A stretch of 56,183 nucleotides of DNA, the filler included, from Jimgerdemannia flammicorona (lineage: Eukaryota), in assembly GCA_003990765.1 (NCBI GenBank). It is 3 parts of 3 records of this genome, joined end to end, with 100 filler letters (N's around TTAATTAATTAA, not from the genome) between each part and the next. Parts side by side here need not be neighbours in the genome. Positions count along the whole stretch, not along the records: positions 18,763 to 37,423 come from RBNJ01002144.1; 2 more parts are not named here. The stretch is one strand, 5' to 3'. A model generated the notes under the pieces. It was not told where the DNA came from, did not search any database, and saw only the letters and a program-made list of their open reading frames with translations. Shown here piece by piece: positions 10,217 to 55,500 of this stretch. Both the position numbers and the translations under genes were made by a program. Positions within the stretch are counted from its first letter, which is position 1. Each line of letters starts with the position of its first letter.

Positions 10217-10230
10217 ACTCTCCCCTTCTT
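10217..10230 (-). other. Polypurine tract
   Basis: AAGAAGGGGAGAGT on the minus strand directly before the 3' LTR. Confidence 0.85.
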
Positions 10231-13600: not shown

Positions 13601-16600
13601 CTTGGGCAATTTCTTGAGTTGTAGCTTATTGATGTGGATGATCTTTGGTCCAGAATTACTAGAGTTGAGTGGGTCTTTTTCATCTTGCAGTTTGAAGTTG
13701 TGGTGTCCTTTCTTGATGGTCAGAGAATGATTTACCCAATCAATCATGAGGTTCTCTTATTTCAACCATGGAGTTCCAAGAATGATCTCATTGTCAGAAA
13801 GTGGTACAATTTGAAGGATAACATGTACTTAGTAGTCACTAATTTGGAAGGGTAGATTGCAGACTTCTTTGCTGATAATATGAGAGGTTCCATCAGCTGT
13901 GGCAACTGCTTGAGTTTGTTGTACTGGAGATGTGAAGACCTTGAGTCTGTTGGCTGTTTCTTTATTGGTGAAGTTGCCTGAGGCACTGCTGTCTATCATA
14001 ATCTTGACAGGTGCTTGGTTGACAAAAGCTTGAAGTGTAAGCAGTTTGTCTGATCCAATGCTGGTGATTTCAGTTATAGGAGCTTTCCTTCTGTTAGTTC
14101 TTCTTTGAGCCAGTTTGTTGACATAAGAGAAGTAATCATCAATCATTCAGGAAGAGTACATTCCAATGCTATAGGGACATTGGCCACTTGGTACATATCC
14201 ATCTTCGATTTTCTTATAGAATTGTTCTTCCTTGTTCATAGTAGGTTGGGCTGGGGCCTTGTTTGATGAGCCAAATTCTTTGGATCCTTGGATAGTAGGT
14301 AGTAGTTCAGAGACTTCCTTGACTGTTAGGGTTGACTTGATTTTTTCGAATAGGATCTAGGCAATGTAGAAACCAATGAGAATCTTGAAGAGTGTCCAAC
14401 TATGGTTTTGGATAAGAACAATAATTTCACCTACATAATCTTTGTCAATGACTCCTCCTTCTACTGAGAGTCCTTTTAATGCTAGACTGCTGTGACAGCA
14501 TATTCTTCCAATATATCCTTCAGGGATTTAGATACTAATTTCTATATAGATTTGCTTGACTTCTTAGTTGGAGACTGTAGCTTCTTCAGCTACATACAGA
14601 TCATATCCAGCTGCTTTTTAACTTTCTTTGGTTGGGGTCTTAGCAGTTTGTCTTAACTTGACAAAGTCCAGTATTCTGGTAGTCAGGTTATTGAGATAGT
14701 GTAGAGTAGTAATAGTTGCTCATATTGCTGTTTGGGGTTTTCAGTTAGGGCAGGTACTGGCCATGTGTCCTGTTTTTTGGCAATAGAAGCATGCTCTGCT
14801 TCTTTGAAGTTCATTCCTTTCTCCTTTAGTAAATTTCTTGAAGGTACTTGGCTGAGTGGGTTCATGATTTCTAGATGTCCATGAGGTGGATGTGGAGGGA
14901 GCTCAGGGTGATTCATGCTTGGATTCTTCTTTCTTGGTCCAAGTCTTTTCCTTGTTATTAAATTGTCTTTGAGGCAGAATTGATCTAGCTATTAGAATTC
15001 ACTTGACCATAGTCTTAATTCTTGCCAGGAACCATTGTTGGTGATTGCAACCAACTGGGTGGCCTTGTTCTTGGATTTTTCTAGTAAGCCATTCAGGCAG
15101 GGCATTGAATAAATAGTCTGCTCTTGTACCATTTCGTGCTTCATCATTGGCAATATATCTTAGGTCAATAGTGTTCAGGAGTGACTCAAGTTTTATATAA
15201 AAGGTTTCAAATTCTTCTTTGTCATGTATATCAAATTTGAGGTTGTGGAGTTTTACTCGAGATTCAGCAATCATAGTTTCATTATAGTATTGAGCAATTA
15301 TGAGTTGCTTGAGTCTAGGGGCTGCAGGATGGGTGCCATATCCTGGGGCATTGTTTGCTGCATTCTGGGCAACTACTGCAGGTTGGGTATCCCATATGAG
15401 GGGTTTTTCAGGAAGAGTTTGCCACCATTCTTCAGCAGATCCTTGGAAGAATATAAAAACTTAGCAGACATAGGCTGTAGTGGTAGCAAAGAGTTGTTCC
15501 AGAGTGTGGTCTTGATTGTTTGTCAGAAGGTGGTCAGCAACTCACTCATTGGTCTATTGATTGGCTTTGAAGTTGGTGTCAACTATACTAATAAAGCTTT
15601 GGACTTCTTATATAGTACCATTGAAGATAGGTAGGCTCAGATTTTTAGTAGGTTGGGTTTGTTTGGCTAAGGTAGTAATGGTTGCTGCCATTATTACTAC
15701 CTGGGCTGTAAGGTCTAGAATCTGTTGGTTCACTATATTGTTTACTGGAGGCAGTTGAACTGCTGATAATAGTATTACTGGTACTACTTGAGATACTGGT
15801 ACAGAGTGTGATGGGGTTCTTTGGGTCTGTGTAAGTTGCTGGAGTAGTAATTGTAGGTCTGAAGTAAGGGCTTGATAGATAGCTGTTTGTTGCTATATAG
15901 GTGTATTCTGTTCTGATGGAGGTGTGTCTTCTTCAGTGGTGTATCCAGGATTGAATTCACTGAGATACTCCTCCTCCTCTTCAGTTTGGTCTCTGTATAA
16001 TTGGGTTTGCTCGGCATTAAAGTAGATAGAATTAGTTATATATCTGATTTCAGATAGACTTAATTCAAAGTCAAGTTCTGGTTCAGTATTGGTCTCAGAT
16101 TCAGGTAGAGCTATAGCAGGGCCTGCTTTAGGTTCAGGATCAGATTGTTGATGAAGAGTTTCTCTTACTTCTTCCTTAAGAATATGGTAGGCCTTACTAT
16201 TCTGGAATTGGTAGTATAATGCAGTCTTGGTCCTGGTATGGTGAAAGTTGGTAGAGTTGAGCCACTTAGCTACAGAGGCTTGGGCTTTGTGAGGGACTAA
16301 GACTAGAAAGACTGCTGCTGGTTATCCTAGGTCACTTGGATTTGTGGAGCTGACAAACTCTTATTGAGAAGAGTAAAGAAGGCTTCAATAAGACCTTCTT
16401 CATCTTGATTTGCTGGGTGTAGTGCAAGGAGTTCGGTGAATAGAGTTTCGCCTATTTGCTGGTTTAATTAGAGTACTTCTTTCTTTGAGTGAAGTTTGTC
16501 CCACTTATTGCAAGTGTGGAGGTCAAATTGTCCTTATACATCAGGTTCAATTCTCTCCAGATTGTCAGATGGTTCAGATAAATTCCAGTTCAGAGGTTGG
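10660..16600 (-). pseudogene. gag-pol polyprotein with many stops; 5' limit approximate
   Basis: CFYCQKTGHMASTC knuckle (~14750-14792); protease [39 protein letters not shown]; integrase GHLG..YWP..CNVCQ; chromodomain EYEVEQIL..EYLVKWKGYP (~10690-10815). Confidence 0.92.
14265..14670 (-). pseudogene. Trimeric dUTPase domain inside gypsy polyprotein, between nucleocapsid and protease
   Basis: AAGYDLY, PEGYIGRI..SSLA, GGVIDKDYVGEI, IA*IL, QGSKEFGSS (five motifs, degenerate); in frame with the CCHC knuckle. Confidence 0.9.
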
Positions 16601-16681
16601 GCTTTATACTAACTTATAGAAATTCTCAGAAAGGTTTATAGTGGGGTAAGGAAGCATCTTGAAGTGGAATTGGATTGTAAA

Positions 16682-16693
16682 CTGCTGCTACTA
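16682..16693 (-). other. Primer-binding site, probably tRNA-iMet
   Basis: TAGTAGCAGCAG 3 nt after the 5' LTR; reads as a G>A-mutated TGGTAGCAG-type PBS. Confidence 0.6.
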
Positions 16694-16696
16694 AGT

Positions 16697-17665
16697 TATA
16701 AGAGAGTTGCTTTTTAAGGTAATCATTATGTAGTTTTGGAAGGGTTTTCTGGAAGTTCTGGATATTCTGAAAAACTGTTTTCTTATGGTCAAGATCAATT
16801 TCATATGGAGTATATTCTCTATGCTTATTGATTTCAAGATTGGGTTGATATCTCAACCAAAGTCCTTTTTTAGACTAGTTCTGAATATTCAGGATTTTCT
16901 GTATTTTAGAAAATTCAAAAAACTAAGACCAGCTTAGTTGAATTGGTGTATCACTGCAGACAATACCCAATTAGGAAATTTCATAATGGAGTTAAGAGTA
17001 GGACCTAACAGAGAGTAAATTTACTTAAGAGTGATTTGTGGATTATTAAATAGGTTTATTTGCTATTCATAATATTGCTATACTAGGAGTAGTTGTGTAA
17101 AGAGATATTATGGGGAAGTGCTCAGGAGTTGTGTTTGAATTGTTCTTGTCTGGTGGTGTTTGACTATATCTTCCAGGAGGTGGCCGATCTGGTAGTAGCT
17201 TGAGATTTATCCAATTTGGTGGGCCTTGCTAAGCATATTTAGGACATTCTATTGGGCTTCTATGAAGTAGAGGGGTGTTAGGCTATGGATATTCATGAGG
17301 GGTAGAGGGGGTGTGACTCAGTTGATAATGGTATTCCAAATGTCAGTGCAGATATAGTTGTAGATCTTGGTAGTCATATTTATGTATTTGAAAGTTGTGA
17401 TTGTTATTTGTTTTGGTTCTCTGTTTTGATATGTCTTGGTGCTCAATATATATACATTTGGTTCTGATTGGTAAGATTCCATTTGTGTGAATCTTGTGTT
17501 CCATGACTTCATATTGACTCAGCTTTATATGCTGTGACTTTAGTTTGACTCAGCTTCATGATCATGCAGATGATTTCCAGATTTGTTCAGAGATTGTGTG
17601 TGATTTCAGTGGCTTGTTCAGAGGGTGATGTGTGATTTCTGTGGCTTAGAGGTTGTGTGCTTACA
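16697..17665 (-). repeat. 5' LTR (short 969-bp form)
   Basis: Direct repeat of 9248-10216; TSD ATAAT adjacent at 17666-17670. Confidence 0.93.
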
Positions 17666-17844: not shown

Positions 17845-18444
17845 GCTCCTTTCTCTGCTATCTTACCAGTTACAAGGTTTGGTAGGCGACCTTCTGAGTC
17901 CCCTTTCCCCTAATATTACCCCCTCTACCTTGGGTTGATTTGCTGTACCTGCTGGGGCATAGTGGGAGGAGGGCAATGGTGCTGAGTTGCCCCTTTATCG
18001 GTATCAGATTAGTGCTTTCTCAACTTTTTTGCAGATTCTGGTGCCTTTAGCTATATCTGGAGTATACCTGTTTTGGTGCAGCACCTTCTTCCTTTTGCCA
18101 TTACCAATAAGGAGTTGTCTCAGTATGTCTTGGGCTATATAGGGAGTCGGCTGACCTTGGGCATCGAGTACTCAGTGTAGGTTACCTGCAGGTCTTCAGT
18201 GCCTATGGTAGGGCCCTCTGGCTTTGGTGAGCTTCCTGGCAAGTATGGTTCTGGCATAGGTGACTGTTTTTCAGGTATTGTCGGGATGGGAGGGGAGATG
18301 GCCATTACAGATAGGAGAATGGATGATAACAGTGAACCAGTAGGGTGTCAGGCTAGGGATGGTCATTGGGGCTGGGGTGGGTGCTGCTTCAGTGGGGCCT
18401 TTTGATTGGTGCAGTGTAGTTAGGTGGTAGGTATCACTCTCGGC
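17845..18444 (+). mobile_element. 5' half of the 1.2-kb poly(A) retroposon family, interrupted by a hAT-type insertion
   Basis: Begins GCTCCTTTCTCTGCTATCTTACCAGT, matching the reverse complement of the element ends at 24840 and 39397. Confidence 0.8.
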
Positions 18445-18662: not shown

Positions 18663-18762
18663 NNNNNNNNNNNNNNNNNNNNNNNNNNNNNNNNNNNNNN
18701 NNNNNNTTAATTAATTAANNNNNNNNNNNNNNNNNNNNNNNNNNNNNNNNNNNNNNNNNNNN
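18663..18762. other. Artificial contig spacer
   Basis: 44 N + TTAATTAATTAA (stop in all six frames) + 44 N. Confidence 0.97.
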
Positions 18763-23280: not shown

Positions 23281-25706
23281 TATAAGTACACAACCTCTAA
23301 GCCACCAAAATTGCATGTCACCCTCAGAACCAATTTAGAAACCATATGTAAGATCACAAAACAAGTTACTGAAGAGATCACCTGGTTACACAAAATACAC
23401 CAGTATATATGAGAACTTATTGCTAAGATACAAGAATATCAGAAGAAGTACTACAATCATAAGACTGACTCTGAACCTTTACTCATTAAGACAACTAGTC
23501 TTAGTATACTATACTATTATAAAAGAAAACTGAAGTACCAAACTCAAACTGAAATGAGAAGAACCCTATCTTATCTATTAAAGGTTCATGAATCATACTT
23601 ATCAACTCAAGACTAAGATATATTATAACTATATAAGACCTTATTATTTTTTTTTATTTTTTTTTATTTTACAGACTCAGAGTCTTGCAGATTTTATTGA
23701 AAGGAAATCTAGACTATATAGGCCAAAACTCTCTCCTACTACCTATTGAGCACTGCTCTCTTATTTAACCTAAGCTAGCTATTATCCAGCAGCTCAATCA
23801 TACCAAGTATAGTAGAGCCTATAATGGTCTACATCTCATTCTATATACTATACTCTCTCTACTACTAGGGAGAACTCAGCCATATGTCAATGACTGAAAG
23901 CATATGTCCAAAACCCCAATATATATATAAGGTCACACTTAAGTCAAATAGAATAGCCCCTGTCACTCTAAGGAGAATGACAGATAAAGAAAAAAACTCT
24001 TATTAAAATATATCATAGTAGATAGGGCCTGGTTCTTCCAGATGAGATGAGTAAAGAACTTATATATGAGGTGAGAAAAGATCTCCAATACCCCACTATT
24101 TAAGCCTGCAAGCCTCAATTACATTGCCATATCAGCTCCTAGTTTCAGTTGAATATAGCCAAGATATCTAAAATAGGTAGTCTCAGGTCCCCCCAACTCC
24201 TCCAATGACTGGGGTCCAATTCTATGAATTGCCAAAAGAAGCCATGAGTGATATCTACTACCTAACTACTTTACACCAATCAAAAGATCCCACTGAAGCA
24301 GCACTCACCTTAGCCCTAATAACTGCTCTCAGCCTGATATTCTACTGGTTACTATTATCACTTTTTCTCCTATCTATAATAGCCATCTCCTCTTCCATCC
24401 TAACATTACCTAAAAAACAATTACCTATACTAGAACTATACTTACTGAGAAGCTTGCCAAAGCCAGAGGACCTTACCACAGGTATCAAGAACTTGTAGGT
24501 AATCTATACTAGATACTTGATGCTCAAGGTTAGCTAACTTCCTACATAATCCATAATATATTAAGACAACATCTTGTTGGTGACAGTAAAAGAAAGAAGG
24601 TACTGCACCAAAATAAATATACTCTAGATATAGCTGAAGATACCAGAAACTGTAAAAAAGTAGAGAAGATACTAATTCAATACCAATAAAGGAGCAACTC
24701 ATCACTATTGCCTCCTTTCTACTGTTCTGTAATAAATATAGTAAATCAATCTGAGATAGAAGAGATAGTAATTATAGAAAGTAGACTTGGAAGATTGCTT
24801 ATCAAACTAATATGACTAATAAGATAGTAAAGAAAGAGGCATAAGACCTTATTACTTAGCAGAAGTAAAACACATTTGAATATTTCATTTACTCTATCTA
24901 TATCACCTCTATTAGAGAATGATAGATGCTTTATCTGAACTCAAGAAAGTCAATATTGTCAAAACCAATCTCAAGCCTATCTATATGACAGATATTACTA
25001 CTAGAAATTGTCTCAGATTATAGAAAATATCATTTTTAAGAAATTTGAACCCCCAGCTATGACAATGAGAGCTCTTGCCCTAGATAAGGATGGCTAGTCC
25101 TTACAAATATACTAGCAGTCCAAAAAAAAAGAGAACTAAGACCTGTTATTCTTATACAACCACTATCACTAAGGATAGTTTTAATTTTGCAAGAGGCAGA
25201 TATGATGATACCTTTGAAACTGATGATATCAGAAGTCAGAAAACTACTTAGATATTATCAGAGATAATATTATTGATGGTGATGTCATTGAAGACTATCT
25301 AGATAGCATTTAAATCTATAGATAGCCTAGTAGTTATTAGTATAATTAGATTAGCCTTGTATGATATGACTGTATACTAACTCAGCAGTCAGACAATCTC
25401 TTGATATATCAGTTTACACTTATACTATATGACTATATTCTAACTCAGTAAGGCACTAAGTACTATATCCATATTTAGTATAGTCCAGATAGCCTCTTAT
25501 TAATATAAATACTCCCTCTCCCAGACCTCAGAATCTCAGACTTGAACAGATAAGAACAATCTGAATACAATTCTTGAACACTTTCTTACAATATCTCTTT
25601 ACAACTATTCCTAATATAATAATATTATAAATAGTGAATAAACTTATTTAATAACCCACAAACCACTCTTAAGTAAATCTACACCCTGTTAGATCCCACT
25701 CTTAAC
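23281..25706 (+). repeat. Variant LTR of the same family with a different internal segment, split by a retroposon and 3'-truncated
   Basis: First ~80 bp match the LTR start; 25257-25706 matches the ORF tail (IRDNIIDGDVIEDYLDSI*) and downstream LTR; the middle does not match. Confidence 0.75.
23647..24840 (-). mobile_element. 1.2-kb non-autonomous poly(A) retroposon
   Basis: A-rich tail; AATAAA ~20 nt before it; perfect 14-bp TSD ATAAGACCTTATTA (23633-23646, 24841-24854). Confidence 0.85.
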
Positions 25707-26000
25707 TAGTACTTTGATTGAGTCAGGAAAATTTGAATCTGATTTAAATTTGCCAATTATATGTCTGATTTAAGCTAGTTTGAATTTATTACATAATGAA
25801 TTCAAACCAATCTGAATTTATTATGTGATAAATTCAAATCAGTTTAAATTTATCATATGATAAATTTGAATCAGTTCAAATTCATTATATAATAAATTCA
25901 AATCAGTTCAAATTCAAATTTAATATATATTGAGTTCAGGTTGATTTGAATCCAAATTGAACCAGCTCAAATTTACCTCAAGAGTTAGAATCCTGACAAA
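25707..26000. repeat. Hypermutated TAGTGCT-terminus (hAT-like) element with ~30-bp tandem units
   Basis: TAGTACTTTGATTGAGTC start truncates the LTR; repeated GAATTTATTAT..ATAAATTCAAA.CAGTT. Confidence 0.4.
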
Positions 26001-26790: not shown

Positions 26791-27015
26791 TGAAATTTCC
26801 TCAGGAGATAAATAATAAGAAGCATTGAATTGGTCAAAAATTGGGTGAAGCAGGGGAATTTGTCACCACATCTGGTAAGAAGTATTGAAAAGAAATAAAG
26901 CTATCTCTATAATAGCTATTTTATATTCCTTCTATTTATCTTGTCCAATTTTTGGTTTAAAATTATTGAGAGGTATAATACTGTAATACATCTCTCTGAT
27001 ATGTAAGATCCAGTT

Positions 27016-29093
27016 TGTAAGTAAACAACCTCTAAGCTACTGAAATCACACATCACCCTCTGAACAAGCCACCAAAATCACACATGACCTCTGAACAAAT
27101 CTGGAAATCACCTGCTCAATCATGAAGCTAAGTCAAACTGAAGTCACAGTACACAAAGCTGAGTCAATATGAAGTCACAGAACATAAGATTTACACAAAT
27201 AGAATCTTATCAATCAGAACCAAATGTATATATACCAAGCACTGAGATACGTTGAAACAGAGAACCAAAACAAACAATAACTATAACTTCTGAATACACA
27301 CAAATATGACTACTGAGATCTATAACTGCATTCACACTAATATTTGGAATGCCATTATCAACTGAGCTACACTCTCTCTGCTCCTCATGAATATCCATAG
27401 TTTAGCACCCCTCTACTTTATAGAAGTCCAATGGAATGCCCTGAACATGCTTAATGAGGCCCACTGAATCAGACAAATCTCAAGCTACTATCAGATCAGC
27501 TGTCTCCTGGAAGACATGGTCAAACACCACCATGATACAGACATTACCCAGATGTCTCAACACCAGAAACATATTGCCCACAAACACTGAGAACTCTTTT
27601 ATAAGTATAGCACCTTTATTCCCTACCTCTGAGTTACTACCAGCAAAATAGTTACTACTCTGTCCTATGGCCAAATTGATGACATGATACAAGAACTCAA
27701 CTACAAGTATCTAGAATATGTCCAGACCACAGACAGAATCTTCTTGTACCCTGACAACTATATCCTACAAATGCCTTAAGTCAGATACGCTATAAAGAAT
27801 ATCTATAATATAATCTACTTCAATGAAGATGAAGCAGAAGACAATGATCTCTCTGACACTGACATGACCTCTAGCCAAGAATCTCTACCAACTCTGATCA
27901 CACCGCCAACCTTACCAATGAACTTACAATAGTTCATAACCACATATGAAACCTATTGGGACAATGACTACTGGTATAAATACTAACCTGCATTTATCCC
28001 TGATTACTTCAACTATAATGAAGAAACTGGAGAACACAATCTGTACCTCCAGGCAACCCTTGAGATCAAACCAACCACTCCACCACCCGAGTACGAGTGA
28101 TATGAACCACAGTCACCAGCTTACTACAATCCCATGACTTATAGTGCTGTAACCTAAAGAAAATATGCAGACAGTGAATCTGATAAAAGCAAGAACAATA
28201 TATCCCTCCTTCATTCACCAACACCTTATCCAGCATACAAGACTGATGATGCCATTTTGTGGGATGGAGATGAAGTTCCAATGTATTACATATTACCTCA
28301 GTGAACAAGGAGAAGTAATCTGCGAACCACTCTTCCTAGATAACTACTTCATTAGAGATAATACAATTGATAGTGATATCATTGAAGACTACCCAGACAA
28401 CATCTAAATCTATAAATAGTCTAGCAGTTATAGTATAGTTAGATTAGCCTTGTATGACATAACTGTGGACTGACTCAGTACTCAGACAATCTCTTGATAT
28501 ATCAGATCACACTTGTACTATATGACTGCATTCTGACTCAGCAAGGCACTAAGTGCTATATCCATATTTAGCATAGTCCAGATAGCCCCTCACTAGTATA
28601 AATACCCCCTCCCCCAGACCTCAGAATCTCAGACTTAAACAGACTTGAATACACAAGAACATTCCTGAACACTTTTCTATAATATCCCTTCACACAACCA
28701 CTCCTAGTATAGCAATATCATGAATAGTGAATAAATCTATTTAATAACCCACAAACCACTCTTAAGTAAATCCACTCTCCATTAGATCTCACTCCTAACT
28801 CCATCATAAAATTTCCTAATTGGGTATTGCCTGCAGTGATATGCCAATTCAACTAAGCTGGTCTTAGTTTCTTGAACTTCCTGAAATACAGAAAATTCTG
28901 AATATCTAGAACTAGTCTGAAAAAGGACTTTGGTTGAGACATTAACCCAATCTTGAAATTAATAAGCATAGAGGACATACTCTATATGAAATTGATCTTA
29001 ACCATAAGAAAACAGTCTTCCAGAATATCTAGAACTTTCAGAAAACTCTTTCAGAACTATATAATGGTTACTCTAAAAAGCAACTCTCTTACA
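27016..29093 (+). mobile_element. Solo LTR, long 2078-bp form
   Basis: TGTAAG...CTTACA; perfect 5-bp TSD CAGTT (27011-27015, 29094-29098); ends colinear with the 969-bp LTRs. Confidence 0.93.
27306..28407 (+). pseudogene. LTR-embedded ORF, ~365 aa consensus, unknown function
   Basis: MTTEIY...DYPDNI*; the stops checked are sense codons (CGA/CAA/TGG) in sister copies; TATATATA at 27227 upstream. Confidence 0.75.
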
Positions 29094-29623
29094 CAGTTCT
29101 AGCTTGAACTTTGCTATGCAATCTAGCTTTCTGAACTTTGAATGCCTTCTTACAAATATCCATCAAAACTTGACTTACTTGATCTCTCAACATCTCTCTC
29201 TAAACAATAAGAACAACTTCCTCTGTATCAGCATCCAAGAGAATATAATTGTAGTGTGAATTTAGAATACCAGCTAGCAAGATGAAAAACTCCAAAAACA
29301 TTACAATTCAAAAATGATTTTGACACTCTTTTTCTAAAGACTTGACAAAATATTGCTGTTCTACTTCTTCCAAATTTTGTGTATAAAGTATTATTATCCA
29401 GTCTTCTAGAAGATTAAGTCTCAGAATTCTCAGTATTTCGAAATTCTGCAGACTTGGGATACAGAACTGAGTCTGGATAAATTTGGCCTTAAGATTTATT
29501 ATTGATTCAAAAAATCTATTAATAGTATTTTATATTAATCCTTCTTCATTTTCTAAAATTAAAATAAAATGCAAAATAACCTTATAAATAATTTAGATGG
29601 GCATACCCCCACATCTCCTCTCC

Positions 29624-29654
<31 letters not shown>

Positions 29655-30589
29655 TGCTTCAGAAACTTAAATAGTGGGAAGATATTGAAAAATTCAATTA
29701 TATATTTTCTAATCTATCAGAGAAGGGCTCTTAGGAAAATAAAAATACTATAGCTTAGACAATCTCTCATGATAGAAACTTCTAAATACCTTCTAAAGTA
29801 CATTAATTCTTTGCTCCCACATCAATCACATAAGCTAGTGAGCCCAAAAACTTTTCCAAAATATCACATTCTAAGAGTTTTCCAAAATCCAACCCAGGAC
29901 CAACTCTACCAGATAGAAGAGTTGAGAGAATCACTAAAATAGCCTCCAACTCTTATCTTGAAGCAGTTAGCAATTCACTTAGGTCAAAATCAGCAGAGAT
30001 AAAATTGTCTTCTATTTTGCAATAATATACTGGAAAAACCTGATAGTGTAAAGAGAGGGATTATCAGAATGGAAAAAAAAAACAAAACTAATAAGAGATA
30101 TTAAGAGATATAGGAGGATACTAGAGGATATCAGAGACTGGTCATAAGAGGTACTTCTCTAAAGAGAGAGAATATTATTGGTGTAGATCAGGAGTCACTC
30201 TCCTAACTAGTCTCTGGTCATTCTCATGACATTTCTGTCATAGTGAGATAGGTGAGCCCAGCTGCCAAAAGCCCTCCTCCCAAGAGTAAATGCTGGAGGC
30301 CAGCTAGAAGAGATTCTCTGCTAAAGCAAGAGTATGTAGCCAGTACAAATCTGGGAACATCTCTCTGATCAGCCTCCTTGGAATGCTGAAGACTGACTGT
30401 GAGAGGTCCTCCTCTGGAGAGAGAGTACATTATCAGTATAAATTGAGGAACACTCCCCCAAATGGCCTTCTGGATGAAATACTGAAGATAAACTACAAGA
30501 GATTCTCCTCAGAAATGAGAGAGAATATTTTTGACACAGATCAGGAGACACTCCCCCAATCAGTCTTCATGTTACTAGCATATCATTGT

Positions 30590-30939
30590 GGCAAACATCA
30601 GCTTGGCAAACATCAGCTTGACAAATATTGGCTTGGCAAATATCATTATGGAGAATAAATACAATATACCAAAAGCAGTAAGGCAAGGTGAGGTGAGGTG
30701 AGATGGGGTAAGGCAGGTTAGAGAATATACTATAAAGTATCTTAGGCAGAGAGTACAGATGGTTTTTTCAAGTGACAAGGTATGTTGAAGTGGTCAGAAT
30801 AGAGCATAGACAGCCTTTTCAAGCAGTGAGACATGTGGAATATGAGCTGCAAGAAATAGAGAGTAAGAGAAGTAAAGCAGAGCAAGTGAGGGAAGTGAAG
30901 TAGAGCGAGTGAGAGAAGTGAAACAGAGTAAGTAAGAGA
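30590..30939. repeat. Simple and tandem repeats: 15-bp GGCAAACATCAGCTT, (GAGGT)n, ~20-bp GAGAAGTGAAGCAGAG
   Basis: Visible periodicity. Confidence 0.6.
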
Positions 30940-32696
30940 AGTGGTTTGTAGGTTATTAAATAGGTTTATTTGCTATTCATGATATTGCTATACTAGGAGT
31001 AGTTGTATGAAGAGATATTATAGAGAAGTATTCAGGATTTTTCTTGTGTTTTGAGTCTTCAAGTCTTCAAGTCATCAAGTCTGAGATTCTGAGGTCTGGG
31101 GGAGGGGATATTTATACTAGTGAGGGTTATCTAGGCTATGCTGAATATGGGTATAGCACTTTAGTACTTTGCTGAGTTGGAATGTAGTTACATAGTATAA
31201 GTATGATCTGACATGTCAAGAGATTGTCTGACTGCTGAGTCAGTTCACAGTTACATTGTATGAGACTAATCTAACTATACTTATGATTGCTAAGCTATTT
31301 ATAGGTTTAGATGCTGTCTGGGTAGTCTTTGATGACATCACTATTAATGGTATCATCTCTGATGAAGTAGTCATCTAGAAAGAGTTATTCATAGATTAAT
31401 TCTCCTTATTTACTAAAATAATAATACATTGGAACTTCATCACTATCCCACAGGATAGCATTATCTGTTTCATATGCTGGGTAAGGTGTTAGTGGGTGAA
31501 GGAGGGGTGCATTATCTTTGCTTTCATCAGATTCGCTATCTGCATATCTTCTATAAGTTATGGCACTATGAGTTGCAGAGTTGTAGTAAGCTAGTAACTG
31601 TGGCTCATGTTGCTCATACTTGGGTGGTAGAGTAGTTGGTTCAATCTTGAGGATTGTCTGAAGGTACAGGTTGTATTTTCCTGTCTCTTCATTGTAGTTG
31701 AAGTAATTGGGGGGGCAAATGTGGATTAGTATTTGTATCAGTGGTCATTGTCCCAATAGGTCTCATAGGTGGTTATGAACTGTTGTAAGTTCATTGGTAA
31801 GATTGGTGGAGTGATCAAGGTTGGCAGAGATCCTTGGCTCATGGTCATATCAGCATCAGAGGGATCATTGTCTTTTGCTTCATCTTCATCAAATCGGATT
31901 ATATTGTAGACATTCTTCATAGTATATCCAACTTGAGATATTTGTAGGATATGGTCATTGGGGTGCAGGAAGGTTCTGTCTGTGGTCTGAATATACTCAA
32001 GATACTTGTGGTTGAGTTCTTATATTATGTTGTCAATTTGGCCATAGGACAGAGTAGCAATCATTTCAGCAGTAGTAACTTGGAGGTAGGGAATAACAGT
32101 GCTATACTTATAAAAGAGTACTCGGTGTTTGCAGACAATGAGTTTCTGGTATTGAGACATCTGAGTGATATCTGTATCACAGTGGTGTTTGACTATGTCT
32201 TCTAGGAGGTGACTGATCTGATAGTAGCTTGAGATTTGTCTGATTTGGTGGGTCTTGCTAAGCATGTTTAGGGCATTCCACCAGACTTCCACAAAGTAGA
32301 GGAATACTAGACTATAGATATTCATGAGGGGCAGAAGGGGTGTGGCTCGGTTGACAATAGTATTCCAAATATCAGCACAGATGTAGTTATAGATCTCAGT
32401 AGTCATATTTGTATATATTCAGAAGTTGTGGTTATTGTTTATTTTTGATTCTCTGTTTTGATGTATCTTGGTACTCAGTATATATACATTTAGTCCTGAT
32501 TGGTAAGATCCTATTTGTATAAGTCTTGTGTTCTGTAACTTTGTATTAACTCAGCTTTGTGCACTGTGACTTCAGTTTGACTCAGCTTTGTGATCTTACA
32601 GATGATTTCCAGATTTGTTTAGAGGTTGCATATGATTTCAGTGGCTTGTTCAGAGGTGACATGTAATTTCAGTGGCTTGGAGGTTGTGTGCTTACA
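30940..32696 (-). repeat. Long-form LTR copy with ORF, 3'-truncated, abutting the gag knuckle of the second gypsy
   Basis: Reverse-complement match to 27016-28760; ORF 32020-32406 MTTEIYNYICADIWN. Confidence 0.9.
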
Positions 32697-35600
32697 ACCA
32701 CCTGAAGAAATCTGAAGCCTGTTTTTTCTATTGCCAAACAAGACACATTGCAACTAAATGTCCTAAGAAGACTAGTGAACTCTTAAGACCAGTCACTGTG
32801 TTGTCCAAAGATACACCTGTCAATCCCACTATTAGTTAACTTGAGCTCAAGATCAAGAAGCTTTATCTGAAGGCTCAGATCTCTCAATATCAAATAGAAA
32901 GAGACATTGGTCTTGACCTCCACTCAGTCAAATAAGTTACTATTCCAGCCAAAGGCTATACTCTGGTGCCTACTGGAATTACAGTTCAATGCTCTGAAGG
33001 ACATTATGCTAGAATTACACCATGATCAGGACTCAGTATCAAATATCATTTAGATATAAGTACTGGTGTCATTGACCTAGACTTTCAAGGACAAGTTCAA
33101 GTCTTGCTTGTCAACCAGAAGGATCAAGACTACACAGTTAAAGAAGGAGACTGAGTTGCACAAATGATCCTAGAAAAAGCCAGTCAACTTAAGATTACAG
33201 AAATCCAAGAACTCCTTGAAACCAAATGAGATTAAAAGGATTTTGGCAGTACTGATCAAGCAGCAAGTCTTAGTAAAAATCAAGCTCAAGCTATGCTTAT
33301 TTTCAAAGGCCTAGTCAAAGGGAAAGAAGTTCAAGTACTCATAGACAGCAGAGTTGCAGAGAACTTCATCAATCAGAATCTCATTAAAAGCCTCAAGATC
33401 CTCACTAGACCTGTATCCAAGAATAATAGTATAGTTACTACAGACAGTACTCTGCACCCCATCAAGTCAATTGTTGCCAAACTACCCATTAAGATCCAGA
33501 AATATTGAAAATGAGTAGACTTTGAGGTTGCACCACTAGGAGATTATAACTTGATCTTAGGAAAACCCTGGCTTACAAAACACAACTCAGATATTGATTG
33601 GTACAAGAATGAAGTCACTCTACTTTAAGATGGAGCCAACATTATGATCATGATAGACAAAACTATGAGTAAGACCCAGATTGCAATACTGTCAGCTTTA
33701 TAGTACAAGAAAGTACTCAAGAAAGCAATGCATGTCTTCATTGTAATGATCTACTCCAAGAAATAAGATAAGAGACTATTAGTCAATAAAAGCATCAAGC
33801 TACTGCTAGAAGAATTTAAAGATGTCTTTTCAGATAAGCTACCTGGTCTACCACCTACATGAGAAGTTGATCATGAAATCAAACTGACCCCAGGAGCTAT
33901 ACCACCTAAGAAACACATATACTATATATCATCACTTGAAATTGAAACAGTCCAGAAGAAACTAGAAGAACTACTTATACAAGAAGCCATTAAGCCAAGC
34001 AAATCTTCTTATGGCTCACCAGTCTTATTCATCAAGAAGAAGGATGGTATCCTATGAATATGTATAGACTATCATACACTCAATAAACTCACTGTCAAGA
34101 ACCACTATCTGCTATCTTTGATTGATCAAATCTTTGATACTCTCAAGAATGTCAAGTACTTCACCAAGTTAGATCTTATGTCAGGATACCACCAGATTCA
34201 AATCAAGCCAGAAGATATTCCCAAGACTACATTCATGACTCTCTTTGGACTCTATGAATTCCTGATCTTAGCATTTAGTCTCACCAATATACCCACCACA
34301 TTCCAGACTCTGATGAATAAGATATTCAAGGACTAACTATTTATTTTCCTGTTAGTATATCTTTATGACATCCTGATCTTTAGTGCAACTAAAGAAGAAC
34401 ACCTCAAATACATTCAAATAGTCCTAGAGATTCTACAAAAATATAAGCTTTATGCTAAGCTCAAGAGTGTGAATTCTTCAAGGAACAAGTTGAATATCTT
34501 GGCCACATTGTCTCTATATAAGGAATTCAAGTAGACCTATACAAGATAGAAGTAATTGAAGAATGGCCTGATTCTATCAAACCTCACAGAACTCTGATCC
34601 TTTCTTGGTCTAGCTGGCTATTACTGCTGCTTTGTCAGAAACTTCTCTGGTATTACTGAGCCACTAACTAACCTCATAAGAAAGGCTCCACACTCAGACT
34701 ACTATATACCCTACATCTGGGACCTCTTTTGTCAACAAGTCTTTCAAGAACTCAAAAACTACCTGACTCATACTCCAGTTCTGCATAATACAGATCAAGG
34801 TCTAAAATTTATAGTTACTACTGATGTGTCAAATTTTACCATTGGAGCAGTCCTATCACAAGATGATGACAAAGGACATCACCCTATAGCTTTTGAGTTC
34901 TGCAAGCTGGCCCCAGCTGAACAAAAGCTAGCTACTCACAAGAAGGAACTACTAGCAATAATATATGTACTAGACTACTGGTGATACTATTTAGAAGGTA
35001 TTGAGTTTGATGTCATTACTGATCATTAATCTCTCAAATACATCAACACCCAACCTACTCTGTTATATCTATAAGTCAAGTGGAGCCTCAAGCTTCAAAC
35101 CTTCAATCCAACAATCATCTATAAGCCTGGTAAGACACTTATAGTATCAGATGCCTTATCAAGATGCTCAGACCTCACCACAATTATATAAGTTACCTTG
35201 GCATCAGAATTCCTAGACCAAATCAGACAAGCTTACAAAGAAGATACAGTTGCCACTAGAGTTTTCTTGAATGAACTCAAGGATATATATACTGTTGAGA
35301 ACAACTTAATCTATCATTAAGATCAAGTCTACCTATCTGAAAACATGAACCTATGCTACAAGGTTTTGCAAGAACACTATGACTCCTCTCTTACCGGTCA
35401 CCTGGAAATTGAGAAGACTGTCAAGAACATCCAATACCACTACTATTGGCCAAACATGGTCAAGGAAATCAAGAACTATGTTGCCAGCTATAATCTATGT
35501 CAGCACAACAAGTCTACTAACCAAGCACCTGCCAGTTTGTTACAACCACTGTCAATTCCTATCAAGAAGTTTGAGTAAGTCACCATGGACTTTATAACTC

Positions 35601-35939
35601 AACTACTATGAACTCAATCTAGTGCTGATGCTATTGTCATATTTGTTGACTGCCTGACTAAGACTATGGTTGCTGAATCAACTACTATCAATATTACTAT
35701 ATCCAAGATTACAAAAATCTTCTTCAAGTTCATCTTCCATCACTATGGTCTACTCTGAGTAATTATTAGCGATCATGACCCCAAGTTTACCAGTCACTTC
35801 TGGCAAACCCTCTTCAAGACTCTGAGAACCCAATTGGCTATGTTTACTATCTTTTACTTATAAACTAATGGACAAACTGAGTATATGAACAGAACTCTAG
35901 AACAAATACTTAGAAACTATGTTTCTTATAAACAAGATG
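32697..35939 (+). mobile_element. Second Ty3/gypsy internal region (CCHC-dUTPase-PR-RT-RH-IN), degenerate
   Basis: Degenerate knuckle; protease VLIDSRVAENF; RT KLDLMSGYHQI..DIPKTTF; integrase GHLE..YYWP, TMDFIT, IISDHDPKFTS. Confidence 0.92.
32845..33253 (+). pseudogene. dUTPase domain of the second gypsy
   Basis: DIGLDL, VPTG, ARITP*SGL, GVIDLDFQGQV, GD*VAQMI, FGST; in frame with knuckle and protease. Confidence 0.9.
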
Positions 35940-37423: not shown

Positions 37424-37523
37424 NNNNNNNNNNNNNNNNNNNNNNNNNNNNNNNNNNNNNNNNNNNNTTAATTAATTAANNNNNNNNNNNNNNNNNNNNN
37501 NNNNNNNNNNNNNNNNNNNNNNN
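37424..37523. other. Artificial contig spacer
   Basis: 44 N + TTAATTAATTAA + 44 N. Confidence 0.97.
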
Positions 37524-38175: not shown

Positions 38176-39397
38176 TTTATTTTTTTTTTTTATTTTTTAT
38201 TTTTTTTTTATTTATTTTTTTTTATTTTATAGACTCAGAGTCTCATGGATTTTTATTGAAAGAGAACCTAGACTATATAGGCCAAAACTCTCCCCCACTA
38301 CCCATCAAGCACTGCTCCCTTATTGAACTTAGGCTAGCTATTATCCAGCAGCTCAACCATACCAGATATAGCAGAGCCTAATATAACCTATATCTCATTC
38401 TGTACACTATACTCTCTCTACCACTAGGGGGAAATTGACTATATACCAATGACTGAAAGTATATATCTGAAACCCTAACATATATACAAGGCTATGCTTG
38501 AGCCAAATAGAATAACCCCTACCACCTCAAGTGAAAATAACAGATAAAGAAAAAACCCTCCTCAAGGTACAGAACAGTGGGTAGAGTCTGGTTCTCCCAA
38601 GTAAGATAAGTAAAGAACTTATATATGAGATGAGAGAAGACCTCCAATACCCCACTACTCAAGTCTATAGGCCTTAATCATATTGCTATATCAGCTTCTG
38701 GTTTCAGTTGAGTATAGTCAAGATGCCTAACTTAGATAGCCTCAGGTCCCCCAGCCACTCTCAATGACTGGGGCCCAACTCTACAAATTACCAAAAGCAA
38801 CCAAGAGTGATATCTATCTAACTGCTCCACACCAATCAAAAGGCCCTACCAAAGCAGTACCTACCCCAGTCCTGATGACTACCCCCAACCTGGTACCCTA
38901 CTAGTCTATTGTTATTGTCCTTCCTTCTATTTGTAATGGGCATCTCTTCTCCCATCCTGATATCATTTGAAAAACAGTCACTTATATCAGAACTATACTT
39001 GCCAGAAAGCTTGCCAAAGTCAGAGGACCCTACTACAAGTACTGAGGACCTGTAGGTAACTTATACTGAGCACTTGATGCCCAAGATCAGCCAACTCTCT
39101 ATATAGCCTATGACATACTGAGATGATATCTTTTTGGTAACAGCAAAAGGAAGAAGATGCTATATCAAAATAGGTATACCCTAGATATAGCCAAAGGTAT
39201 CAGAAATTACAAAAAAGTAGAGAAGATACTGATCTGACACCAATAAAGAGACAACTCATCACTATTGCCTCCCTCCCACTGCTCTACAATAGATATAGTA
39301 AACTAATCTAAGATAGAGAGGGTATTAGTTATGGAAAGTAGACTCAAAAGGTTGTCTATCAAATCTTGTGACTGGTAAGATAGTAGAGAAAGGAGTA
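38176..39397 (-). mobile_element. 1.2-kb poly(A) retroposon, second complete copy
   Basis: Colinear with 23647-24840; A-rich tail; TSD TCTCTTYAATTT (38164-38175, 39398-39409). Confidence 0.82.
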
Positions 39398-41315
39398 TCT
39401 CTTCAATTTCTCTACTTCTAGCTATATATATCTTAGTCTTTAATTTGCCACACTCTTCTATATCACTGTATTAGCACACTTACTCAATATAGCTATAACT
39501 ACTCCAACTTGCCTGATTTCTACCTCACCTACTACCTCTGCTGAGTCTCTTTCAATCTGCCTGTCTTATTCTAGTATATCTTAGTAGCTATCTTTATTTT
39601 TGACCAGCAGACACCTACTGGAGATCTCTTACTTCTCCAATATTCAATTATAACTCCAATATCTACCACTCATTCTTCCCACAACTCTCTCTTCTCTAGT
39701 AAAGGAGAGTTGAGATATTAATATTCAGATTCATCTTTACTTCTACCAAACCATCTATACTTCACAACTCTCAATGATCAGACCAGGAGTACTACTCTAC
39801 TTTTAATATCTTCTAAACATCTAGCTCTTAGTAATCAGCCATCAGAATTCAGTCATTCTTATTTCCAATCTATTCACTTAGTATATATAGACCCTTCTAT
39901 CACCTCATATCTTCCTATCAGTATCTATTAGAGGGCTTAACCACCCCATTTCTTTCTAACTATCTAGACTCCTCACTATAGCCAATAATACCTCTCTCCT
40001 CATTAGTCCTATTTACTAATACATTATATACTATATTAAACCTCTCAGTATATCTATACCTGCTTTGACTAGAGCTCTATATTTCAAAAGTCTATCTAGC
40101 TATTCTACTCAATTACTTCTCACAGCTAGATAATAGTAAGAGTCTACTATTACTAAATTCTATTCTAGCCTTTATTACTTTCTCTATATTAAGCAATCTC
40201 TCCATTCTCTGATTGTATATAATTCTCTCTTGTCTTTCTACACTAAAATCTCTACTCTACTCCTCTAAACTACTATATCATCACATTTGCTTATCTATGC
40301 TTATCTGTTTAATTCCTTCTCATATTGTATATTCTGTACTAGGAAAAGATCTGTCTCTAAGCCCTGCAATTAAGCAAAAATGTTTTAACATCTTATATAG
40401 CCCCTCAGACCTTTGTATTTATTGAGAAAATGTTAGTTATATTGTTTATAAATAAATAATATTTGGTAGAGTTTCCAACTCTCTTATAATTTCATACTTA
40501 TTTTCTCTCTAGCTATATTCAAATTGTGTTCTATATTTGCTTCAATATTCTCATCCTTCTTAGTATCCAATCTAGTCAGTATCTCTGCCATCTTCTCATT
40601 ATTCCAGGTCTTCATCAACTTCTTATACTCCTTATACAATAGCTATTAGATTACTAATCTACTTTGCTGTCTCTACTTAAATTTAGTATACTCTCAATAA
40701 CTATTATCAAATTAGCCTCTCTTTCAGCATTGACATCATAGCCTTTAATCTTCAACATTATAGCCAAAACCTCAGACTTCAGTCTCTCTACTACTTTCTC
40801 ACTACTTAGCACTCTCTTCTAGATTTTCTCACTGATAATATATAGGTCTAACTCTCTTAGCTCATCTATAGCCAACTTTCTCATTATCAAAAACATCTAA
40901 TAAGTATTACCCAGATACTTTCCCTCTGGAGTTACAGGCCTCTCCTTCTTTAATAAAGTAGTATTAGCTCTAATACTAATAGACTCATCTTACTCTACCT
41001 TCAGAAAATCAAGTACTCATCCTTCTCTATCCCAACCACCTGCTCTCTCTTCTTGATATCTAGTACTATAAATCTGATCTTATATATGTCTCTTATCTTT
41101 ATATTCTCTATACCCCCCCTTTTCAGAATATCAGCCTGCACTAGATATTTCATCTCCTTCTCTCAGACTTTGAGCATACCATTCTCATAGAGCTACTGAC
41201 CCTTTATCTCCTCACTCAATACCATAGTCTCTGTTCTCTCTCTCTTCCCACTTATAGCCCAATTACTCTTCTTTGCTCCTTCTATTCCTTCTCTCACCTC
41301 TCTCTTCATTCTCTC

Positions 41316-44300
41316 TTTTTTTTTTTTATAATTATAAGAACTTCCATTTTATTATCAAACTGTCTATAATATACTAATACAAAAAAACCCCCTCACCCAA
41401 TCTAACTCAGAAACTTCCTCTCTCTTTCACCATTCATCTGAAATACTGCTAACCCCCCTGCTACCCCAATTCTCCCCTCACTTTTCCTATAGATTGTCTC
41501 TATCAGTTACCTCTGATACCCCCCACCAGTACCCCCACCTCTCTACCACTCATTCAATAGGTCTGTCATCAGCCACTCCCAACTAGCCACCCTTATCCTC
41601 AATGTCAACCATTAACCCTCCTCAAATATATATAGTATCCTGTAAGTTTGACCCAAATCACTAGTACCTATCTTAATATCAACCACTCATCTCTCAGCCC
41701 CTCCACCAGCCTCCTCCAGAGGTCACCCCACCTCCCTCCTGCTATCAACCCTAGTGGATACACCCCTAGCCATACCTCAAATACCCTTCAAAAGTCACCC
41801 ATCACCTCACACTCCCTAACCAATATTCAGGAGTCTGTACCACTCCTCTCTTCTGCCCAATATCCAGACACTCCTCACACTCCTGGGTACCACCTTCTAC
41901 CAAGTGACCTATCTGGTAGTTCAACATCATATTATGCCATAGAATTCTCCACCATGCCACCCAGAACTTGGGGGAATCCATCTCACCACCTGCTTACTCT
42001 ATAGCCAAATGCCATTCCAGTCTCACTCTTCTCCAATCTCCACCCCCTGCTATATCTCAGACTACAGATCCCTCTCATGCTCCCAAAAGTACTCTATACT
42101 ATCCTCTAAACAGAAGTCCTCCACTGGCACTCTGCCTGACAGAAGGTGGTCCTACCTCTACATCTGGGGTCTCCATTCCTTCTCCCCCTCATCACTCTAC
42201 TATCAGAGACCAATATGGTGAGCCCTATCAACTACTCTCCACCAGAATTCCCTATAGTGCATCCTCTGACTCCCTCCAAAGCCACCAGAGATAGAGGGAG
42301 AACTGGGCCTCCCATATCCTCTATATAAGGAGAATCCACTCTCTACCTCTTAGCTCACTTGCTCACTTTAGCCACCATACTCTCAAGTAATGAAGTTACT
42401 TGGGAAAATCCACTAGACCTAGGTCTCCCCAGTCTACTGGCCAGGTCAACACCTCTCAACCAATCTGACTCTATCATTCTGCCCATATCCAGGTCCTGGC
42501 CATCTTCAATAATTGCTTGACCATCCATATCAGAAAGTCCAAGTAATACTTTAGGTACTATAGCTTAGGTAGCTAGTATATATATATTCAACACTGTCAC
42601 CCTCTCTATTAGAGATATATAATGACTACTCCATCTCAAGAGAGTACTCTCCCACTCTACCAACCACTGCTCCCACCATCTGTGAGATAATAAGGAGCTA
42701 TATACCAAAAAGTAAATATCTAGATAGCAAACAACCTCTCCTATAGGGATAATTGTTCCAATCATATCTCCACCTACAATCTCTCCTCTCAACACCAAAG
42801 TCTCACACTTATGCCAGTTGAACTTAACATCTGAGCATCTCTCATATCACTCTATATATCTTTTAGTACTGCAATATCTTCAGCTAACTCCAGTCTGATC
42901 ACTATATCTTGGTGAAGGCTCCCACCTTCCAATTAATCTCCAGAATGTCCAAACCCTCTACCTTTTACTATATCCTATCCAAAAGAGGCTCCAGAGACAA
43001 TATATATAAGATCAGTGACAGTAGCTCCCCCTGTAGCACTCTCCTATCTAGAGGGAATGAAACTTCCCTATATCCATTCACTATAATTACTACTTGACTC
43101 TCTTCCAGCAGACTGATCAAGGCCTGCTAGACCTCAGAGAGGACTACAATACAATTTAGCACCCCTTCTAACCATACTTGCCAGACTCTATTATAGGCCT
43201 TCTCTTGGTCCAAGAAAGTCAGCCATCTATCTACTCCAGTAGTACAAGCTCTCTCAATGATACTATACACCTAGGCTGTCCTATCTCTGATTAGATATCC
43301 TCCTACAAATCCTCTCTACTCAGCCCCCAGAACCTGCTGAGCCACTCTTTGCAGTCTAGCCACCAGTATCTTTATGACTAGTTTGTAATCTATCTTCAAA
43401 AGTATAATCAGTCTTCAGTTTTTTCACTCCTTCCTCCTCCTCTTATTCTTAAACAGCAGAGCTATAAGACCCAAGCTCTGCCCTCCAATCCATATCTCTG
43501 AGCTAATCACTTCATTGTACATTGCTGTTATTTCCTCCAGAATTATCTCAACTCCTGCCATCTTCTTTCAAAAATCCCACTATAAGCCATTCTCCTCTGA
43601 TGCTATCTCTGAACTCATTGTTGTCAGTACCTACCAAATCTCTTTCTCTCAGACAGCAGCACCAAGATCACCTAAGTCCACTGCTGAATCAGAGTACTAT
43701 TCCTCCAAGTGTCTGTCAATGTCCAGTACCCCCCACCCCCCCATCCTCCTTACTCTACAATTGTCTCTACCATTTGCTCAACTGGTCCAGAATCTCTGAA
43801 GTCTCAACAACCAACTTCCCATCCTCATCTCATTACTGCCATACTCTCCTTGCCTGCAAAAGCTGTGACAAAAACTTAGTAGACCTCTCTCTCTCCTCTA
43901 ATTCCTACTATTATAGCCGGGCCACCATGTCCTTAATCTGTAGGTCCTCCTTTTACCTCAGCATACTCTTCAGCTCCTCTATCTCTAGCCTGATCTGCTG
44001 TATCCTCCAATCCCCCTTCTTACTATTATTCAATAGATCTGCTCAAGACACTAATAGCTTTATCAACCTCTGAGTCACTTTTTTCTCTAAGCACTCTGTA
44101 TTCTTTCTGCCTCCCCCTAGTACTATTGTGCCTCAGATTTCAATCTCTTCCAGCAATCCCCAATCTTCAGCCCTGCTACTCTCCAACCAAGTATCCTGGA
44201 GCTAATATCTACCACCCACACATCCCATAAGAAGGCCTTTCCTAGTAAAGAGGTGTTCAGACATCAATTTCCAGGCCCCTCCTAGCTTTCCCCAAAGCAT

Positions 44301-45130
44301 CCTCCTCCTAGAAGACCCCAGTGATCTGACTACAGATATTAAATAGTTTCCAAAGTCCTCTAGATATCAACTCTCCAGCATTCAGCTTTTAATATCCAGT
44401 CAATCCTCAAGCCCAGTCCCACTACTCAGTAAGTATAGACTCTATAATTCCCCCATCCAAGCCTCTCAGCATTCACTAATGAGCTCAGATGTTTGACTTT
44501 CTCCCAGGCTTCCATTCCACCACTCCTATCTGCCATCCCTCTATCAGTTCTGTCTATTTTTCCATTATATATCATATTAAAGTCCTTTCCTAGATAGTCA
44601 ATTCCTGTCTCTACCAATGCTCTAGACTCTTGTAGCTCTTAAATATATTCCACTTGTACCCTCTTTTCTGCTGGACAATAATATGACCTAACTATTAAGA
44701 GCCTCTAGCCTGGCCTCTTTCAAATACCCCACACTACTCTGCTCCCCAAATGTCCAATGTCTCTAATGTCCCCCTTGCTCTTTCTAACCAGAATGCCCAC
44801 CTGTCCACACCAAATAGCCACACCACCCCATTCCTTCATCCAGTCCAGAATATCTAAGACCCCATCACACTCAATATTCTATAGTAGAAATAAATCTGCT
44901 TCCAATCCCTTCAGCCATCCAAAGATATTTCAACATCTCACTACTTCTTATAGCCCATTGATATTCAATGATAAGATTCTAGTTATACTGTTGAAGAATA
45001 GCTGTCTACTTTACAATTCCATGCTCACCACATCACTAGCAATATCTAGATTCCTCTCTGCTCTGCCTCTCCCTGCTGAGCCTCTAATGCCTCCAAGATC
45101 TCCTGATAATTCACATCATCCACAGCTTCT
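41316..45130 (-). mobile_element. Degenerate L1-like LINE (ORF2 and end of ORF1)
   Basis: Poly(A) at 41316; APE start ILSLNING at ~44960, KDFNM; similar to the adjacent LINE. Confidence 0.8.
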
Positions 45131-45135
45131 ATCTC

Positions 45136-55370: not shown

Positions 55371-55371
55371 T

Positions 55372-55500
55372 AGCGAGGCTCATGTACTCGACGAAAGCAA
55401 AAATCAGCATAATTTCGAGCCTAAGGCCGACAAGCACATATTCCTGGGTTATAGCTGCAAAGCGTATAGGCTATAGAAGGCGTATAGTGACCTCTCGAGA
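55372..55500 (+). pseudogene. Copia post-integrase SH3/GKGY-like fragment, opposite orientation
   Basis: FEPKADKHIFLGYSCKAYRL. Confidence 0.7.

Follow-up and report, generated by a model that had tools for sequence, protein, structure and literature searches.

A decayed orphan reading frame inside the long terminal repeat of a chromovirus in Jimgerdemannia flammicorona

Open reading frames (ORFs) inside or overlapping long terminal repeats (LTRs) are textbook features of complex retroviruses, known from sag of mouse mammary tumour virus (MMTV), nef and foamy-virus bel2. Here we describe an LTR from the fungus-like genome of Jimgerdemannia flammicorona (assembly GCA_003990765.1) that resembles these systems by position, as a decayed ORF of 365 codons at 27306-28407 lies within a solo LTR at 27016-29093. 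All positions refer to the window, i.e. the whole stretch of 56,183 nt that was analysed. The LTR belongs by sequence to a dUTPase-bearing Ty3/gypsy chromovirus, and we think it likely, though well short of certain, that the ORF in its long form is an orphan gene that was once functional and was borne by the element. The short LTRs of the same family would be deletion derivatives of this long form.

The sag gene, located in U3, is likewise a complete ORF within the LTR and hence found at both ends of the integrated copy. However, the sag product of MMTV, a retrovirus of mammals, is a membrane superantigen, whereas the present element is a chromovirus in a fungus-like genome and its ORF has no Pfam match; also unlike sag, the TATA box upstream of the ORF would turn the LTR into an independent unit. 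The foamy-virus genes Tas/Bel1, with its internal promoter, and bel2/bet, which extends into U3, offer a likeness in the second promoter for an accessory gene, the structured N-terminal part followed by an acidic tail, and the overlap with the LTR. However, most of their length is placed between env and the LTR, no homology to our ORF was found, and an activator role in the present case would be a guess from composition. Searches of Pfam, PDB sequences and Foldseek revealed no sequence or fold homology of the ORF to a known accessory protein.

Additional ORFs (aORFs) of LTR retrotransposons are known from the internal region, where they are found upstream of gag or else after pol and before the 3' LTR, whereas the ORF at 27306-28407 lies wholly within the LTR. 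The aORFs of plant LTR retrotransposons have been reviewed (PMC7264820), and an 'add. ORF' of unknown function is marked for fungal chromoviruses in the legend to Figure 3 of PMC2864245; as presented in the relevant parts of these two sources, they are likewise orphan extra ORFs of Ty3/gypsy elements, with no mention of one placed inside an LTR. Chromoviruses bearing a dUTPase have been described from Basidiomycota (PosPlaTy3 families and Phanerochaete elements, PMC2864245). Compared by description only, these have the same backbone as the complete element found here at 9248-17665 (gag CCHC, dUTPase before protease, reverse transcriptase, RNase H, integrase, chromodomain), and the parts of PMC2864245 given over to them mention no LTR ORF. 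A search of the full-text literature, with Repbase, subscription journals and supplements outside its scope, returned ORFs inside LTRs for retroviruses only. Such a search is no proof that a retrotransposon case, for instance a chromovirus with an orphan accessory gene wholly inside its LTR, is unpublished.

The solo LTR and its decayed reading frame

The LTR copies within the window were located by BLASTN and compared in a MAFFT alignment, which gave five further copies of the family besides the solo LTR (copy A). Copy A begins with TGTAAG at 27016 and finishes with CTCTCTTACA at 29093, TTACA being the 3' end, and the pentamer CAGTT stands on each side. This agrees with an earlier note, made by a model from the sequence, which had claimed a solo gypsy LTR flanked by target-site duplications. 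The LTR copies of the long form and the features of copy A are as follows:

27011-27015, no strand: left target-site duplication CAGTT (sequence read)
27016-29093, plus strand: solo LTR of the long form (copy A) with TG..CA termini (sequence read, BLASTN, MAFFT alignment)
27306-28407, plus strand: decayed 365-codon ORF of copy A, broken by 9 in-frame stops and, near 28287, by an insertion of 4 nt that is private to this copy
29094-29098, no strand: right target-site duplication CAGTT (sequence read)
30940-32696, minus strand: copy B, long-form LTR positions 1-1745, ORF running from 32406 to 31310 with an open start of 128 codons
35940-37222, plus strand: copy C, which follows the long-form LTR as far as position ~1331 and has its ORF from 36197
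25254-25707, plus strand: copy D, a fragment comprising the final 19 codons and the stop along with the second TATA box and AATAAA

C>T and G>A transitions have heavily altered the repeat nest around 27016-29093, and all ORF copies in the window are dead. The frame is nevertheless kept in copies A, B and C, save for one private frameshift each (+4 nt near codon 330 in A, +2 nt near codon 230 in B and -11 nt near codon 275 in C); the 4-nt insertion of copy A is missing from eight contigs of the public run X1. Both the presence of the ORF in copies B and C and its being left behind in a solo LTR had been proposed in the earlier note, and are borne out here. Among the ORF columns of the three copies 759 are invariant, 245 vary by transitions only and 23 vary otherwise, and the transitions occur mostly in CpA or CpG contexts. 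When all six copies were compared, each of the 23 in-frame stops had a sense codon as its counterpart in one or more of the other copies; for 17 of them the difference from such a codon was T>C or A>G alone. The TGA/CGA example given in the earlier note is codon 20.

To obtain a reverted consensus, C/T columns were set to C and A/G columns to G. The resulting frame is open over 365 codons except for codon 284, which is TAA in copy A and TAT and TAC in copies B and C, and it closes at a TAA common to all three copies that reach this far. Also seen were the acidic stretch quoted in the earlier note and ..DYPDSI at the C-terminus. Base composition differs strongly by codon position within the ORF (chi2 95.6, p 2e-18), as opposed to the rest of the LTR (p 0.19). 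Further, the variable sites at codon positions 1, 2 and 3 number 111, 54 and 141, and the sites with a transversion 5, 6 and 13. This skew is suggestive and hints at past constraint; as evidence of selection it is weak, because second positions hold fewer C and G.

It could be argued that there is no gene at all, and that a chance frame has emerged from A-rich, transition-mutated sequence and from the copy comparison itself. Transition reversal does remove stops whatever the frame, and one antisense frame, in the same codon phase as the ORF, was left with 4 stops only. Under the same treatment, however, 14 and 23 stops persist in the other two sense frames and 20 and 18 in the remaining antisense frames, and the ORF has none before the shared TAA; the check on a back-mutated consensus that the earlier note had suggested thus came out in favour of the frame. 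Together with the codon periodicity and the relatives described below, this makes the chance frame highly improbable, and we consider this explanation already disfavoured.

No RNA run is recorded as containing the sequence, of which small shares occur in four public runs of four studies; the LTR family, including the ORF region, is abundant in these. Contigs of 80-99% likeness cover 30 of 30 bins in X1 and X4, 28 in X2 and 24 in X3, and most of their differences are T>C and A>G. One public-run contig of 9601 nt has a partial ORF match near its start, which would fit an element with a long LTR.

Some details of the individual copies should be mentioned. Copy C is the least mutated (GC 0.45 over the ORF) and is followed on its 3' side by AT-rich sequence and then by an assembly gap. 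Copy D was absent from the list in the earlier note. It starts at about LTR position 1333-1336, close to the break of copy C at 37222 (LTR position ~1331), and yet it sits 10 kb upstream of copy C; this may reflect a common breakpoint or a coincidence. Close to the 5' end of the LTR, at 27034-27089, there is a pair of 24-nt direct repeats, and copy C is without 31 nt in this region, approximately one repeat unit.

Relatives and the predicted product

An exhaustive phmmer search of 1.84 billion representative proteins, using the translation of copy C with X at stops as query, resulted in three matches, named P0005, P0006 and P0007. The last was discarded as a spurious repeat protein. P0005 has 128 aa and is 84% identical to codons 1-128, whereas P0006 has 247 aa, is 63% identical to codons 115-272 (query overlap) and continues to the same C-terminus. 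Both are singletons from metagenome contigs of ~1 kb; P0005 ends at the exact site of the first CAA>TAA stop of copy B, and P0006 begins at an internal Met. Word-index protein searches gave no relatives beyond these two, scans of the metagenome_contigs and viral_contigs sets found no relative, and the window itself yielded no additional diverged copy when searched by tblastn with the ORF. The earlier note had recognised no homolog, which holds for Pfam families and folds but has to be amended for P0005 and P0006.

The reverted translation is identical to P0005 at 119 of 128 residues, compared to 99-108 of 128 for the raw copies, i.e. identity rises from 77-84% to 93%. Because the reversion moves the translation closer to an independent protein, the reconstruction is independently supported, which speaks against a chance frame. 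Against P0006 the reverted translation has 164 of 247 residues identical and 207 similar, with whole-codon gaps only. P0006 is thus a diverged relative that stays open for 247 codons to the same end, which again is hard to combine with the absence of a gene. Tyr, Phe and Trp are abundant in the blocks that are conserved, and P0006 keeps TPYPAY. The open reverted frame, the codon periodicity and the diverged relatives that keep the frame support an ancestrally protein-coding ORF.

The reverted translation holds 68 Asp and Glu against 20 Lys and Arg, along with 31 Pro and 26 Tyr, and the natural sequence of P0006 is likewise skewed towards acidic residues. The product would be a very acidic protein, helical over its first ~120 residues and continuing in a long tail rich in Asp, Glu, Tyr and Pro. 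In this build, a structured N-terminal part with an acidic, aromatic-rich tail, it bears a resemblance to acidic activators. The ESM Atlas model of P0006 has a predicted local distance difference test (pLDDT) score of 0.39. A Pfam match to DUF2783 (E 0.16) was rejected as an ORF domain, as it lies past the stop in the read-through of copy B.

The complete chromovirus, its short LTRs and the surroundings

The same LTR family flanks a complete element in the window:

9248-10216, minus strand: short 3' LTR
10217-16698, minus strand: internal region with gag CCHC, dUTPase, protease, reverse transcriptase, RNase H, integrase, SH3 and chromodomain
16699-17665, minus strand: short 5' LTR, with codons 1-76 only
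27533-28662, plus strand: the 1130-bp segment of copy A that is missing from the short LTRs, comprising codons 77-365, the second repeat pair and the second TATA box

This element, at 9248-17665 on the minus strand, is heavily mutated and has an ATTAT duplication on both flanks. Its internal region matches Pfam zf-CCHC, dUTPase, aspartic protease, RVT_1, RNase H, integrase zinc domain, Tf2-1 SH3 and chromodomain; a polypurine tract AAGAAGGGGAGAG precedes the 3' LTR and a primer-binding-like sequence follows the 5' LTR. As short LTRs flank a complete element with these domains, we assign the LTR family by sequence to a dUTPase-bearing Ty3/gypsy chromovirus, in agreement with the earlier call of a gypsy LTR, both ends of copy A matching the LTRs of the element. 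Flanking of an internal region with protease, reverse transcriptase, RNase H, integrase and chromodomain was found for the short form only.

The short LTR corresponds to 27016-27532 plus 28663-29093 of the long LTR, 1130 bp being missing. The ORF start at 27306 lies 227 nt inside the LTR part common to the short form, and the frame is continuous over the left edge of the 1130-bp segment, an edge also spanned by the metagenome protein P0005. Because frame and P0005 cross this edge unbroken, the simplest reading of the sequences is that the long form is the older one and the short form its deletion derivative. The same deletion is present in both LTRs of the complete element; therefore the deleted form went through a replication cycle. 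As this form, without codons 77-365, still transposed, the ORF was dispensable in cis.

An interior that is itself a nested transposon between the halves of a short true LTR, or a remnant of gag/pol, had been raised in the earlier note as a possible objection. It would fit that the 1130-bp segment is the exact difference between long and short LTRs. Against it, the frame is continuous across the left junction, P0005 spans this junction, and neither duplicated target nor terminal repeats were seen at the segment edges in the alignment. As for gag/pol, the ORF contains no Pfam match at E<=1 and hhalign against the gag of the complete element gave a probability of 0.2%. Hence this explanation appears very remote.

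The dispensability in cis is what one would expect if the ORF were a passenger, i.e. a gene or gene piece of the host or of a mobile element that was captured in the LTR, was of no use to the element and was later deleted. Further, neither a function nor a family can be assigned to the ORF, and two promoter-like modules of similar build could mark the seam of a composite. On the other hand, no host-type homologue was found among about 1.8 billion representative proteins, and a frame that begins 227 nt inside common LTR sequence and runs unbroken across the segment edge does not look like a captured piece. Nothing is missing from the unit of start, stop, upstream TATA box and downstream AATAAA, and each of these is conserved. 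In its strand composition (A over T, C over G) the sequence matches the retroelement bodies, and a relative of 63% identity is open to the same stop. We judge a passenger to be unlikely, if still worth serious thought.

Finally, the long LTRs may represent a non-autonomous or separate lineage that uses the machinery of the chromovirus, with the ORF as cargo of the element's parasite. In the window each of the four long-form copies is either solo or truncated, and a matching internal region is next to none of them, B and C abutting foreign pol. However, long and short LTRs are 84-90% identical at both ends, which is as close as the two 970-bp short LTRs are to each other (88%), and the short form is most easily explained by a deletion from the long form; the 9601-nt contig mentioned above would also fit a long-LTR element. 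A separate lineage is thus improbable, and an ORF that belonged to the chromovirus itself remains the reading we prefer.

The foreign pol lies between copies B and C:

32697-35939, plus strand: pol fragment of another dUTPase chromovirus family, truncated left and right where the 5' ends of B and C meet it

In aligned pieces this fragment has 36-50% amino-acid identity to the pol of the complete element. As it is foreign and cut at both ends, we take B and C to be insertions into another family and not its LTRs; that B and C are the LTR pair of one element rearranged by an inversion was rejected, as the enclosed pol is of another family and the stretch 29094-30939 has no gag, primer-binding site or LTR remainder. 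Rfam and tRNA scans of the window had no matches.

Several other features surround the repeat nest. Another repeat family is present in three copies that are 75-78% alike (17846-18443, 23641-24836 and 38197-39392); 23641-24836, the sole copy of the three that was scanned, had no Pfam match. The gaps at 18663-18762 and 37424-37523 have the same linker, with N runs around TTAATTAATTAA, and because of this the order of the pieces over these gaps is not certain. The region 41000-51000 is C-rich with GC skew to -0.64 and internal repeats, includes an RVT_1 match at 46433-47059 on the minus strand, and belongs to another retroelement. Copia-type pieces occur at 54021-55473, with a Pol beta-barrel domain (minus strand) and a retroviral SH3-like domain (plus strand). 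Intron-split host genes lie at 959-4220 on the minus strand, comprising a methyltransferase exon (959-1252) and peptidase M20 exons (2889-3407 and 3729-4220), and at 1-8000 the GC content is ~0.50 and CpG is not depleted (observed/expected 1.05). We call the genome fungus-like on the basis of its dUTPase type of chromovirus, the hypermutation by transitions and the compactness of the host genes.

Putative promoters and the meaning of a probable LTR-borne gene

The long LTR contains two promoter-like modules, one on each side of the ORF:

27125-27186, plus strand: two tandem 31-nt repeats with a TGAGTCA-type motif, upstream of TATA box 1
27227-27234, plus strand: TATA box 1, TATATATA, 79 nt before the ATG, kept in five of five covering copies
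28441-28541, plus strand: two 38-nt repeats, 63 nt apart, each ending CTGACTCAG, upstream of TATA box 2
28597-28604, plus strand: TATA box 2, TATAAATA, kept in three of three covering copies
28730-28735, plus strand: AATAAA, kept in five of five covering copies

TATA-like boxes at 27227 and 28597 had been pointed out in the earlier note, and they are present in every copy that covers them. The nearer TGAGTCA/TGACTCA motif lies 67 nt before TATA box 1 and 63 nt before TATA box 2. In copy A the first 31-nt repeat is mutated to TAAGTCA, and both repeats are intact in the short LTRs. The ATG of the ORF is the first one after TATA box 1 in copies A and B; in copies C and S1 there is an extra ATG in between, at a site that varies among copies. 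With TATA box 1 upstream of the ORF, and TATA box 2 and AATAAA after its stop, each long LTR looks like a self-contained gene. Further, we infer that the first module must have been the promoter of the deleted element, as the short LTR keeps that module alone. In the runs X2 and X3, guessed to be RNA, the depth rises steeply from 28696 on; it should be noted that contigs cannot show RNA starts or levels, and no inference is drawn from this rise.

For a once-functional gene borne by the long LTR we propose the following sequence of events. Module 1, i.e. the paired TGAGTCA-type repeats and TATA box 1, would start a transcript whose first ATG is that of the ORF, and this transcript would end at the AATAAA of the LTR itself, ~1.5 kb downstream of TATA box 1. 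Because of this end, every LTR, solo copies included, would be a complete transcription unit. Module 2, i.e. the paired TGACTCA repeats and TATA box 2 ~130 nt before AATAAA, would start the genomic RNA. Alternatively, TATA box 1 may start all RNAs, with the ORF inside an R region of 1.5 kb. The product would probably act in trans as an accessory factor, and our best guess, at low confidence, is a regulator resembling an acidic activator. One may go further and speculate that an acidic regulator encoded by the element is made from each LTR under control of the upstream module, such that solo LTRs form a dispersed multi-copy gene family feeding back on the second promoter of the element in a Tas circuit like that of foamy viruses, which deletion variants exploit in trans; this full scheme we consider quite unlikely.

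A number of points weigh against an element-borne gene. Every copy is broken, and some stops disappear by the very rule used for reversion, which also gives Glu and Arg an advantage over Lys. The codon-position skew is also weak as a sign of selection because copies in one genome diverge neutrally after insertion. Only two relatives are found in ~1.8 billion proteins, both partial metagenome fragments; of the motifs named by the earlier note the C-terminal block is kept in P0006, but PPPEY is not and reads PLSEY there. No Pfam family was found inside the ORF, a sequence profile search of PDB gave no solved relative (best E 0.23), and ESM Atlas gave no usable match for the ORF. AlphaFold2 predicted five helices at residues 3-120 for the N-terminal 128 aa with low confidence (pLDDT 54.9), this model had 0 Foldseek matches in PDB at E<=0.001, and for the C-terminal 247 aa nothing was predicted confidently (pLDDT 30.7). 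The full-length element with two long LTRs that the earlier note had hoped for did not turn up, as the window holds no element with an ORF-bearing LTR at both ends and its sole complete element has short LTRs. Promoter use, RNA ends and function are predictions from motifs, and the TGAGTCA motif is a putative AP-1/Gcn4-type site.

The LTRs of retrotransposons are usually taken as non-coding control regions. If the long LTR is indeed a gene, solo LTRs, which are normally counted as inert scars, could be coding copies, and accessory genes in the style of complex retroviruses would not be limited to the retroviruses of vertebrates. The long and deleted forms would then make up a natural system of cis and trans dependence in which cooperation and cheating among retroelements can be followed. 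More generally, repeats hypermutated by transitions can conceal real orphan genes that become visible through the comparison of copies only.

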